Below are positions 25,018-28,302 of a stretch of 64,000 nucleotides of DNA, one piece after another. The translations under genes were made by a program, and so were the position numbers. Source of the stretch: Syntrophales bacterium (GTDB taxonomy: Bacteria; Desulfobacterota; Syntrophia; Syntrophales; UBA6807); contig JAXGPA010000003.1 in the NCBI GenBank assembly GCA_040767195.1, positions 160,001-224,000 on the forward strand, in the 5' to 3' direction. The notes below the pieces were generated by a model. That model was given only the letters and a program-made list of their open reading frames with translations, did not search any database and had not been told where the DNA came from. Every line of letters starts with the position of its first letter. The stretch's first letter is position 1.

Positions 25018-26810
25018 CAGTCTCGTTCAATTACCTTGAGATTCAGCCGGGCGGCCTCGAGCCCGGGGTCGCAGGACAGGGCACGCCGGAAACTTTCGGC
25101 CGCTTCACCTCTTCTCCCCTCCTTCATGTAGACAACACCGAGGAGGTTGTGCGCTTCGGCATAACCGGCGTTGATCTCGAGGGCCTCCCGAAGCAACTGG
25201 GCGGCCTTTTCATTTTCCCCCCGGCTGACGAAGATCATGGCCATGTTGAACAGCATCCCCTCCTTCACGGGACCGTGCTTCAGCGCCTCGAGCAGATGCG
25301 CCTCCGCCCCCTCGAGATTGCCCTGGCGAAGAAGAACAACGCCCAGGTTGTTGTGGGCGGCGGTGTAGCCGGGATTGAAGCGGATGGCCTCGCGGTAGTG
25401 GAACACAGCCTGGTCCCCGCGCCCCAGGGCCACCAGGTGGTTGGCCAGGTTGAAATGGGCGCTGAAGTGACGGGGATTGACCCGGATGGCCTCCTGGAAG
25501 TGGTTGACAGCCGCTTCCCGTTCACCGTCATCGGCCAGGGCTACGGCGAGGTTGTTGTGGGCGAGAGCGTTGTTCTCTGTCACCTCGAGGGCGTGCGTGA
25601 AGAGGCTTCGGCTGTTCTTCCAGTGAGACAGTTGAAACCATGTCGTCGAGGAAAGTCCCGCCAGGAGTATCAGGACAAGGGAAGCCGAAGCGAAAACGGG
25701 AAATCGCCGACGGGAAAGGGTCTCATCGACAGCCCAGGTCAGGGCGATGAAAAGACCGATGAGAGGGATATAGGTGTACCGGTCGGCCATGCTCTGGGGG
25801 CCCACCTGGACGATACCGATGACAGGGAAAAGGGAAATGAGGTACCAGAGCCACCCGGTGAAGAACCAGGGCCGGCGGGCCTTTTCCCGGAAAACGAACA
25901 CGGTGATGAGAACCAGGAGGGCCGCCGCTCCCAGAACCTTCCAGAAAGGAATGGCCGCCGGGTAGGGGTAAAAGACGGACAAGCCGGCTGGCCAGAACAT
26001 CTTGCCCATGTATGTAACGGCGGAAACCAGGGCATTGGCGGCCCGATCCGCCAGGGGGATGGCCTCGAGGCTTCTCATGGCTCCCCCGGAAGCCTGGGCG
26101 TAGAGCGTTATCCCGGAAGACAGGACGGCAAGAGCGAAAAAGGGGATTTTTTCCATTTTTGAAGGTGGCCTGTCGGGAACAGGCCGGCGCCGCAAGGGCC
26201 ACACATCGAGAAGGAGCAGAAGGAAGGGTGCGCTGACGAGCATGGGCTTGGCCATGAGTCCGAGAGCGAAGAACACCAGGGCGATTCCGTATTTCCAGCG
26301 GCCCGGTCTCTCCACGTAAAGGGCGTAGGCCCCCAGCATGAGGAAAAGAAAAAAGGTGCTGAGGACGTCTTTTCGTTCCGCCACCCAGGCCACCGATTCC
26401 ACGTGCAGGGGATGAAAAGCGAAGAGTGCGGCCACGATGCCGCTTTTGCCCGGGGCGCCGGTCATCCGGGTCAGGATGAGAAAGAGGAGGACCGTGTTCA
26501 GGATGTGAAAAAAGAGGTTTGTCCCGTGGTGGCCCCCGGGATCGAGACCGTAGATCTCGACATCGATCATGTGGGAAAGCCAGGTCAGGGGATGCCAGTT
26601 GCTGGCGTGAAAAGAGGTGAACGCCCAGCCCAGGCCGCGAAGGGTCACCCCGGCGGTGACCTCCCGGTTGTTCAATACATACTGCCAGTCGTCCAGGTTG
26701 ATAAAATCGTGGTTAACGACGGGATGATACAGAAAAAGAGTCATCCCCGCCAAAAAAACAGAGACGGCCCAGAGCGTTTTCTTGAGGTCCGTCCGCGGCA
26801 ACGGGTTCAC
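25017..26810 (-). CDS. TMTC-like GT-C membrane glycosyltransferase with C-terminal TPRs
   Basis: NLDD, WHPLTWLSH, HPLHVESVAWVAERKD, MADRYTY, then several TPRs. Confidence 0.85.
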   Translation of the reverse strand: MNPLPRTDLKKTLWAVSVFLAGMTLFLYHPVVNHDFINLDDWQYVLNNREVTAGVTLRGLGWAFTSFHASNWHPLTWLSHMIDVEIYGLDPGGHHGTNLFFHILNTVLLFLILTRMTGAPGKSGIVAALFAFHPLHVESVAWVAERKDVLSTFFLFLMLGAYALYVERPGRWKYGIALVFFALGLMAKPMLVSAPFLLLLLDVWPLRRRPVPDRPPSKMEKIPFFALAVLSSGITLYAQASGGAMRSLEAIPLADRAANALVSAVTYMGKMFWPAGLSVFYPYPAAIPFWKVLGAAALLVLITVFVFREKARRPWFFTGWLWYLISLFPVIGIVQVGPQSMADRYTYIPLIGLFIALTWAVDETLSRRRFPVFASASLVLILLAGLSSTTWFQLSHWKNSRSLFTHALEVTENNALAHNNLAVALADDGEREAAVNHFQEAIRVNPRHFSAHFNLANHLVALGRGDQAVFHYREAIRFNPGYTAAHNNLGVVLLRQGNLEGAEAHLLEALKHGPVKEGMLFNMAMIFVSRGENEKAAQLLREALEINAGYAEAHNLLGVVYMKEGRRGEAAESFRRALSCDPGLEAARLNLKVIERD

Positions 26811-27250
26811 CGGTCCGGCAACGCCATGCCGCCTGTTTCATGCTTGACGGTGATGGGTTCGCCCCTGATACCGGCATAGAAAACAATTATTTCCGCCGTT
26901 TCATTGCCGTCGTTTTTCCCGTAGTGCCAGGTGTTCACAACCTCGACAATGGCCTCACCGGCTTTCAGGTTCAGTGTCCTGCCGCTTTTGGTGACGACCG
27001 TCAGTTCCCCTCGCAACAAAACACCCGCGTTAATAACAGGATGCCTGTGGAGCGGTAAAATCGCACCGGGGGGGATGGTGATCCTCAGGATGGTTATTTC
27101 AGGGTTTCCTTCCGGGTAATCAGGCAGAAGGTTTCCGTCCCAGCTGGAACCGGTTCTCGAAAGGGTTTCGACGTGAACGCCGCTTTCGTCCGCCGCCGCG
27201 ACATGCACCGACAGCAGTATCGCCAGCCCTACAAACAAAATCCTTTTCAC
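26807..27250 (-). CDS. Secreted cupin-domain protein
   Basis: Signal peptide; LPLHRHP, GEL, WHYG cupin motifs; GTG at 27250 abuts the mobile-element end. Confidence 0.8.
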   Translation of the reverse strand: MKRILFVGLAILLSVHVAAADESGVHVETLSRTGSSWDGNLLPDYPEGNPEITILRITIPPGAILPLHRHPVINAGVLLRGELTVVTKSGRTLNLKAGEAIVEVVNTWHYGKNDGNETAEIIVFYAGIRGEPITVKHETGGMALPDR

Positions 27251-28198
27251 GGGGTCGGACCAAGATAACATGTTGATTAATCGGGATATACTTCCCAAAA
27301 TAGGCTGTTTTTATGCCTTAAAAGGGCATTTTCGGGCCGGAAAACACTGTTGTAAGATTCATCAGGGTCTTTAAGAATATACAAATTCTCCGTCTTCAAA
27401 GAACGAACATCTCGCCCTGATCCTTGAAGTCCAAGATTTACTTTCACTCGGCTCACATAATCCCGGCTGCCCACGGCAACGCTATTTGACCAGAAGGCCT
27501 GTTTTACGGAACCTGCGGCAATGGCCTTCTGAATCCACTCTTCGTAGACATTATTAAAATTTTCATTCACAGCTACCAGTTCATTGAGTCTTTCCCTGGC
27601 GATGATTCGATATCGTTTTGGAGGGTTCATTAATTCGTGATAACCGCAATGCCTCCACTTTCCAGGATGATTGACGACTCCGGCACGAACCATATTCAGA
27701 TCTATGTAAAGGAGGCATCGAATCAAGTGTTCTTCCGTATCGATGGCTGTGGCATGATAACGATCCTCCCAAAAAGCACCGTTCCGTTTTTTCCGCCGGT
27801 TATATGCCTGGGCCGTTCTACCGGCGACAAGTTGAACAGATTTTGGAATAACCTCTCTGTCTTTCCCCCCGTATACCATGAGGTGAATGTGATTTGAGGT
27901 TATCGCGTAATTCAAGACCTCGAGGCCATACCGTTTTTTCGCCTCGAAAAGCCAACGGACCCAGGTACTGCGGTCAATTGAAAACTTAAGGAGAAAAGAG
28001 CTTTTATGGCAGCGGTGCGTTATGTGCCACACATTGTCCGGTAGGAAGTGTCTGTTCGCTCTGGGCATGTTCAAATATCAAGGAGCGTTTTTTTTAAACA
28101 AGCTTTTTTGACATCAAAAAGGGCCTTTTAAGGCCGATAATCGCAACAAATAAGATTGTTTAGGAAACTATTTCAAATAGTTAACTTGGTCCGACCCC
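27251..28198. mobile_element. HUH/Y1 (RAYT-like) element bounded by imperfect ~82-bp terminal inverted repeats
   Basis: Left GGGGTCGGACCAAGATAAC (27251) and right GTTAACTTGGTCCGACCCC (ends 28198); second shared block GCCTTAAAAGG at identical offset; lower GC than flanks. Confidence 0.85.
27277..28074 (-). CDS. REP-associated tyrosine transposase-like HUH endonuclease (Y1_Tnp)
   Basis: WHITHR, HUH motif NHIHL, FWEDRY, catalytic Tyr in LYIDLNMVRAG. Confidence 0.92.
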   Translation of the reverse strand: MNMPRANRHFLPDNVWHITHRCHKSSFLLKFSIDRSTWVRWLFEAKKRYGLEVLNYAITSNHIHLMVYGGKDREVIPKSVQLVAGRTAQAYNRRKKRNGAFWEDRYHATAIDTEEHLIRCLLYIDLNMVRAGVVNHPGKWRHCGYHELMNPPKRYRIIARERLNELVAVNENFNNVYEEWIQKAIAAGSVKQAFWSNSVAVGSRDYVSRVKVNLGLQGSGRDVRSLKTENLYILKDPDESYNSVFRPENALLRHKNSLFWEVYPD

Positions 28199-28214
28199 GG
28201 ATTCCCGGATTCCA

Positions 28215-28302
28215 TGGTGCCTGGGGCGGGAATCGAACCCGCACAGCCTCGAGGACCGAGGGATTTTAAGTCCCTTGCGTCTACCAGTTCCGCCACCCAG
28301 GC
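28215..28302 (-). tRNA. tRNA-Leu (TAA)
   Basis: GCCTGGGTGGCGGAACTGGTAGACGCAAGGGACTTAAAATCCCT...GGGTTCGATTCCCGCCCCAGGCACCA; long variable arm; upstream TTGACA-17-TATAGC promoter. Confidence 0.97.

Follow-up and report, generated by a model that had tools for sequence, protein, structure and literature searches.

A TIRtron-type Y1/HUH element whose long inverted ends may act as rolling-circle origins

The element and its transposase

The stretch of Syntrophales DNA that we analysed (64,000 nucleotides, hereafter the window) carries a small mobile element of the TIRtron kind, which is widespread and already described; the copy here is intact. The element is situated between a cupin gene and tRNA-Leu-xerD, and comprises a Y1/HUH transposase gene between two inverted ends. 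Features of the locus are as follows, with offsets counted inward from each tip.

26807..27250, - strand: cupin gene adjoining the left tip; absent from one strain contig (variable neighbour or cargo)
27244..27250, + strand: carried flank 'tag' outside the left tip, by a rule taken from near-identical end pairs; contains the cupin GTG start
27251..28198, no strand assigned: element, tip to tip; 948 bp, 44.5% G+C versus ~59% for the contig
27251..27268, + strand: left tip (gene 3' side, 'D'); GGGGTCGGACCAAG-TAA
27269..27316, + strand: left spacer of fixed length; A/T tracts phased at ~10.7 bp
27277..28068, - strand: Y1/HUH transposase ORF; ATG start, 263 aa, PF01797 Y1_Tnp match
27317..27356, + strand: left inner dyad at offsets 67-106, of the form CTTA-N8-TTTT-N8-AAAA-N8-TAAG; overlaps the GCCTTAAAAGG box reported earlier
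28093..28132, - strand: right inner dyad
28133..28180, - strand: right phased spacer
28181..28198, - strand: right tip (gene 5' side, 'U')
28199..28213, - strand: period-8 stutter, GGAATCCG twice, running into the right tip
28215..28302, - strand: tRNA-Leu(TAA), host neighbour, on the same strand as the transposase

The initial annotation described inverted repeats bracketing the Y1/HUH gene, and alignment of the two ends from their tips (27251 on the + strand, 28198 on the - strand) bears this out. Positions 1-19 are identical at 18/19, offsets 65-75 at 11/11, and offsets 65-82 at 16/18. The 14-mer GGGGTCGGACCAAG occurs twice in the window against 0.07 expected, a count reached in 0/100 shuffles. 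The description of a bipartite repeat with a divergent spacer was right about identity (only 16/45 at offsets 20-64) but missed the phased A/T tracts that the spacer carries, and the perfectly matched inner box forms one half of a 40-bp dyad that reaches offset 106. The right repeat, previously placed as ending at 28213, ends at 28198; the remaining bases (28199-28213) are a stutter of the flank and take up nearly all of the 16 bp separating the tRNA 3' end from the right tip.

Several minor features concern the neighbouring genes. The cupin GTG start is the three bases abutting the left tip, which in one strain contig seemingly start a TPR-domain membrane protein (26790). tRNA-Leu has no space for its own terminator ahead of the element (28199-28217), and a terminator-like hairpin lies within the right end (28122-28135, from a scan at chance level); for these two reasons, read-through from the tRNA into the element might control the transposase. 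A promoter scan also gave chance-level results, and no known RNA was found in the window apart from the tRNA. A tRNA-like direct repeat (D6), together with the adjacent xerD, was regarded as coincidental.

The transposase contains the motifs H60-I-H62, W100, and Y121 within YIDLNM, and we infer that Y121 is the catalytic tyrosine. An alternative TTG start at 28074 would give a protein of 265 aa. A structure model (pLDDT 87) has TnpA-REP 4ER8 as its best fold match (Z 15.5, rmsd 2.6, 156 aligned; Foldseek E 8e-7), which assigns the predicted protein to the HUH fold. NF047646 matches at E 1e-18 with 67.4 bits, under its cut-off of 80, and the NCBIfam IS200 profile scores 21.7 versus a cut-off of 55. 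The C-terminal part has no Pfam match, and a fold search with a model of this tail (pLDDT 76) returned a best Z of 3.4 and no clear match.

Related proteins form a clade. The NHIH and FWEDRY motifs are present (compare HuH NH[VYF]H, with class 2 also allowing I, and W[EQ]), and among 59 clade proteins Y121, D123, and N125 are invariant, with M126 in at least 90%. None of the 59 has a Pfam HTH at E 0.01, whereas 6/8 other, more distant Y1 proteins of the same genomes, taken as a control, do. We also built a rough tree of 28 rows: the window protein, 8 others, and 19 of the 74 homologous ORFs. In it the clade is separate, on a long branch with 93/93 support.

The annotated placement of the stop and last codons inside the left repeat is correct: the stop codon occupies offsets 27-29 of the left end, and ~26 final codons lie within that end. 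We rejected the idea that the left end is kept for a conserved protein tail, because the three codon positions carry similar information (0.78/0.84/0.78), the profiles of U and D ends correlate at 0.77, and the ORFs end at points between -105 and +54 nt relative to the usual stop (74/80 ORFs). It is the end DNA that dictates the final codons of the protein.

End architecture and distribution

This genome contains 27 matches to the tip, with the inner motif at offset 66 in 22, at offset 67 in one, and absent in four. There are therefore 23 ends with an inner motif but one intact gene, and 22/23 keep the exact spacing. The remaining copies are solo ends, ~300-bp MITEs, and remnants – solo and MITE-like copies of the sort that the initial annotation had envisaged. 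Ends in this genome have a mean identity of 55% and are mostly intergenic, tight against genes.

Relatives are encoded in 594/611 candidate stretches; we analysed the best 80 of these, which share 48-59% identity and come from many phyla. A profile trained on this genome's ends called both ends in 51/80 loci (upstream 57/78, downstream 64/77), and many of the uncalled ends have a clear tip and a divergent interior. Spacing is unshifted in 41/57 upstream and 60/64 downstream ends. The paired, spacing-constrained ends proposed initially are supported, and the 51/80 loci with both ends called show their conservation in homologues. Across the order, relatives are present in 17/121 genomes at E 1e-30 and 10/121 at E 1e-40, and the end pattern is present in 18/121, with up to 3 control matches per genome. 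Plasmids gave distant matches only (21-35% identity, 17 records). The end pattern also occurs on 11 viral contigs (L276-L286).

Each end is a 106-bp site almost without indels, composed of a conserved tip, phased A/T tracts, and the 40-bp inner dyad. The tip reads GGGGTCGG, with GGGGTCAG in 1/22 aligned genome copies. The A/T tracts have a periodicity of 10.6-10.8 bp that exceeds all 500 column shuffles in both end types (computed on 41 and 60 ends). A role for the dyad as an obligatory hairpin is unsupported: its linker positions are only weakly complementary (114 ends), and for D ends (60 examined) shuffled sequences fold as well, with a mean z of -0.23. U ends show a slight excess, with 12/41 folding better than shuffles at z below -2, which leaves room for single-strand recognition at U ends; the window's own ends have z of -3.1 (right) and 0.4 (left). 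From these patterns we infer that protein binds the end as duplex DNA, probably bent, and not as a hairpin. Searches of the open-access literature yielded no description of this 106-bp anatomy.

Ends also lie in the same direction around other genes. At L357:5123-15080 (G043), 11 same-direction tips with A-rich, related tags alternate with genes for Fic, RHH-ParE, and unknown products, next to a type IV pilin-like locus. At L358:3560-6729 (G036), an HTH-HipA pair is flanked by two 262-bp MITEs in direct orientation. Co-oriented end clusters surround enzyme genes in G000 (C7:146093-152256, C7:314913-322989, and C10:77631-80398), with cargo that includes phosphatidylserine decarboxylase, a CBAH-family hydrolase, an S8 peptidase-PKD, and DUF1365-CMAS; the first of these clusters differs among strains.

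Scars outside the ends

As noted initially, no target-site duplication is visible at the element, and none above chance was found in homologues: direct repeats of at least 5 nt flank 7/49 two-ended elements versus 9.3 expected (the 51 two-ended loci minus two near-duplicates). The same 49 elements have no target consensus past a pyrimidine at -1. The HUH fold and the lack of a duplication excess do not fit a DDE insertion sequence.

We compared the bases outside near-identical ends at different sites. Among end pairs that are at least 95% identical, 14/19 share 5-9 outside bases (mode 6) and 5/19 share fewer than five, whereas 66/20,999 unrelated end pairs share such bases and 17/24 older pairs (85-95% identity) share 0-1; pairs and loci in these counts are not independent. 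Because near-identical ends carry these bases to new sites, the mobile unit extends ~5-7 nt past GGGG, and its boundaries coincide with those of the repeats approximately rather than exactly. Movement as a unit, an early suggestion, is supported by two 945-bp copies that match at 100% but stand in different flanks at their two sites (tags of 9 and 6 nt). Other whole copies, located at different sites and tagged on each side, are 97-99% identical.

At one site of the 945-bp copies, the 6-nt tag meets an unrelated 190-bp repeat at a sharp joint in that repeat's middle; the other half of the repeat is absent at the element's far side. Dispersed repeats of 190-197 bp, putatively attC-like, surround the elements at L179 and L180 (G041), where one end cuts into one of them. 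No part of the first 110 nt of 140 ends covaries with the tag (best z 2.9 in 2,200 tests), and an internal guide in that region was therefore rejected.

A second type of scar is the stutter. A perfect tandem unit is present at the junction of 52/206 ends, the window's right end among them, versus 0.7% in shuffles. Stutters start at -2 to -13 (mode -5 to -7) and include 0-32 tip bases; the units run inward, and 29/52 have no microhomology. At least 7 flank bases are duplicated at 36/143 ends versus 0.7-0.8% in the null, and a control in which the G-rich tip was grafted onto other DNA gave duplications in 0.7%. Duplications wholly outside the tip occur at 8/206 ends, several within iterated stutter arrays. 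Longer one-ended units (119, 194, 286, 431, 804, and 888 bp) start at tags and involve both end types, and neighbouring extra ends near a gene are co-oriented in 23 cases and opposed in 1. As the one-ended copies show, the ends also act singly.

Strain variation was assessed in metagenome contigs. Contigs from 4 of the 24 runs listed cover the element, which is present at this site in those 4. One strain contig keeps 27244-27250 but joins it to 26790 (joint at -7), dropping the cupin gene. At the C7 four-end cluster, four other runs place an unchanged 5-nt tag at a new site, with and without one extra stutter; variants of this cluster also include a stutter insertion of 12 nt and joints by which cargo is left out or reordered, some of them joining like ends, though joints from metagenome contigs may reflect paralogous ends. 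Contigs of 8 runs, which drop rare variants, contained no tip-to-tip joint, and no clean filled/empty pair was found in these contigs, in a same-genus genome, or in an XerD-based metagenome scan (best identity 62%). The same-genus genome lacks the element at this site; other genes stand behind its tRNA-Leu, and a 240-bp MITE lies ~5 kb away.

Relation to known systems and a proposed mechanism

The suggestion that this element represents a distinct, undescribed class is not supported. TIR-flanked RAYT-like genes were named TIRtrons or TIRYTs by Di Nocera, De Gregorio, and Rocco in 2013 (PMC3733652), who described moderately abundant TIR families with a GGGGWSAS motif in some or most, though not all. 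A later study linked them to TnpA-Y1 subclass 2.1, remarking 'further analyses necessary' (Quentin 2018, PMC6006769), a subclass that is among the commonest RAYT-like genes (14.9% of strains; PMC6006769). Within the searched literature, as far as the available text of each source extends, both names are confined to PMC3733652 and PMC6006769 and no mechanism is reported. In the searches made, the end architecture and scar-based mechanism look new, while the TIRtron class itself is known.

As in TIRtrons, a RAYT-like Y1 gene lies between TIRs that are unrelated to GTAG REPs and start with GGGG, the TIR can overlap the gene, and a TIR family is present elsewhere in the genome (PMC3733652). The tip matches GGGGWSAS at 7/8 positions (PMC3733652). 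The HTH-bearing TIRtrons that we checked have near-perfect TIRs of 16-30 bp, unlike the 106-bp phased sites with an inner dyad seen here, and tags, stutters, and a mechanism are absent from the portions of the TIRtron account available to us (PMC3733652). Subclass 2.1, which corresponds to RAYT group 1, resembles our clade in length, in its W[EQ] motif, in lacking REPs, in Deltaproteobacteria-type hosts, and in some duplication (PMC6006769; Bertels 2017, PMC5581495). The clade differs in that YIDLNM replaces the class 2 Y---NP, in having no Pfam HTH match in the C-terminal part, where subclass 2.1 has Bac_DnaA_C, HTH_23, or HTH_28 (PMC6006769), and in its separate position in our rough tree.

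More distant comparisons are also informative. E. coli TnpA-REP shares the closest fold and 5'-phosphotyrosine chemistry (PMC8266576), but the flanks here, read directly, have no GTAG or REP hairpin, and the gene moves with its ends, whereas REPtrons reportedly do not move as one unit (PMC3333891, PMC8266576). IS91/ISCR elements similarly combine an HUH enzyme with presumed rolling-circle movement, no target-site duplication, and one-ended events that move adjacent DNA (PMC13181058). In IS91 the two ends differ, one being ori and the other ter, terminal inverted repeats are lacking, and the target is a tetranucleotide (PMC13181058), unlike the two inverted, apparently equivalent ends and the lone pyrimidine preference observed here. 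IS200/IS605 elements share the Y1 core and absence of target-site duplication, but our element lacks their conserved subterminal hairpin, guide, Y---Q motif, and TnpB (PMC6006769, PMC5027513), and its protein is not of the short core-only type.

The carried flank bases and the tandem duplications beside ends suggest that each end is likely a rolling-circle nicking origin. In the reading that we favour, which on the sequence evidence stands at roughly an even chance, this is a TIRtron-type element whose Y1/HUH enzyme would nick one strand ~5-7 bases outside each end, creating inward rolling-circle origins. The protein would bind the tip and inner dyad of a double-stranded, A/T-phased, and probably bent or wrapped end, and this dual binding would explain the fixed tip-dyad spacing. 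The flank-to-GGGG strand would be nicked, with the tyrosine holding the 5' end of the tag and tip, and host polymerase would extend the flank 3'-OH inward. A 3'-OH would then attack the phosphotyrosine: attack by the extended strand would yield a stutter or one-ended duplicate, and attack by another DNA's 3'-OH would provide a new flank, resulting in adjacent deletions, new sites, or direct-repeat arrays around cargo genes. Both ends would have to fire to give a complete copy, and the single intact gene would serve solo ends and MITEs in trans.

HUH enzymes form a 5'-phosphotyrosine and leave a 3'-OH able to prime synthesis or attack the linkage (PMC8266576), nick-extend-rejoin has already been put forward as the way in which TnpA-REP amplifies BIMEs (PMC3333891, Fig. 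7B), and one-ended IS91 events resemble the scheme (PMC13181058). Nick-extend-rejoin predicts a tag plus a variable length of element outside an intact end, with no microhomology, as observed. Against it, stutter starts range more widely than one fixed nick predicts, 5/19 near-identical pairs have fewer than five outside bases in common and most older pairs 0-1, no empty site was found in the genomes and contigs compared, the resolution of complete two-ended copies is unaccounted for, and the nick site, strand, and dyad role are read from scars.

Whole copies at different sites, up to 100% identical and tagged on both sides, also fit a non-replicative process in which paired ends are synapsed and cut ~6 nt outside the tips, donor 'coupling' bases are carried along, and solo ends are decay products. 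Tn916-type elements leave as a unit with donor coupling bases. MITEs that retain both ends, and long spacing-fixed ends suited to a synaptic complex, are in keeping with such paired-end movement, which nonetheless leaves unexplained the tag-anchored partial copies from either end, the iterated stutters, the 11-tip same-direction array, and the 23:1 co-orientation; the 8 runs without a tip-to-tip joint also count against it, and we consider it unlikely. Peel-and-paste transposition of the IS200/IS605 kind, by a single-strand circle formed at the replication fork with hairpin recognition and a guide-chosen target, shares the catalytic fold and the absence of target-site duplication, and draws further support from the leading-strand gene orientation implied by 21/23 ends in this genome (where ends are clustered) and from the mild folding excess of U ends. 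It is nevertheless quite improbable: the ends are inverted rather than functionally distinct on one strand, D ends fold like shuffles, dyad linkers are weakly complementary, no guide covaries with the tag, and the skew bias of homologue flanks (36/50) is not beyond the xerD control (28/37).

A further possibility is that repeated invasions left the ends behind as inert relics, with stutters made by polymerase slippage at G runs and arrays by RecA recombination. The low average identity of this genome's ends and the strain joints that unite like ends agree with this, and conservation could be explained by independent invasions because homologues elsewhere have the same motifs. That so many stutters lack microhomology, that a grafted G-rich tip rarely gives duplications, that tags travel to unrelated sites, and that 22/23 ends keep exact spacing make decay and slippage a very improbable explanation. 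One intact gene alongside 23 mostly intergenic ends tight against genes, and an element at this site in 4/4 runs covering it, could reflect a domesticated REP-like system in which the host keeps the ends as sites for DNA bending or protein binding and the enzyme passes mainly by vertical inheritance. We find domestication hardly credible given the patchy distribution (clade-level matches, E below 1e-40, in 10/121 genomes of the order), the spread of homologues at 48-59% identity across many phyla, the recent identical duplicates, and the site lacking the element in the same-genus genome.

An extension of the rolling-circle reading, which we offer tentatively and regard as somewhat doubtful, is that the element is a rolling-circle transposon with two origins that also serves as a gene-capture platform. 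Each inverted, helically phased 106-bp end would be nicked independently and read as bent double-stranded DNA by the non-HTH tail, and its tyrosine-held 5' end would be joined to any 3'-OH without a target sequence. Same-direction solo-end arrays would then collect and shuffle cargo (toxin-antitoxin pairs, Fic, enzymes) in an integron-like manner. This extension would supply a mechanism for all TIRtrons, because classical TIRtrons also stutter.

The scars predict the position (~5-7 nt outside GGGG), strand, and polarity of the nick, which makes the question testable with one purified protein and short substrates. If the scheme is true, an HUH enzyme that needs no target sequence and works from inverted, double-stranded origins would represent a new mode of DNA movement, one by which genes of anaerobic bacteria could be shuffled locally.

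Similar scars are present at more distant Y1 loci. Stutters were seen by eye in 4 of the 12 such loci examined, and TIRs, where found, are 16-30 bp. A broken, more distant Y1 gene follows a GGGGACAG-type motif at L115:4198 (G000 C1:462197) and is probably a decayed classical TIRtron. The distant TIRtron-like loci L159, L163, L168, and L173 have tandem stutters outside their tips, and three of them have a DnaA-type HTH; the stutter scar may thus be general to the class.
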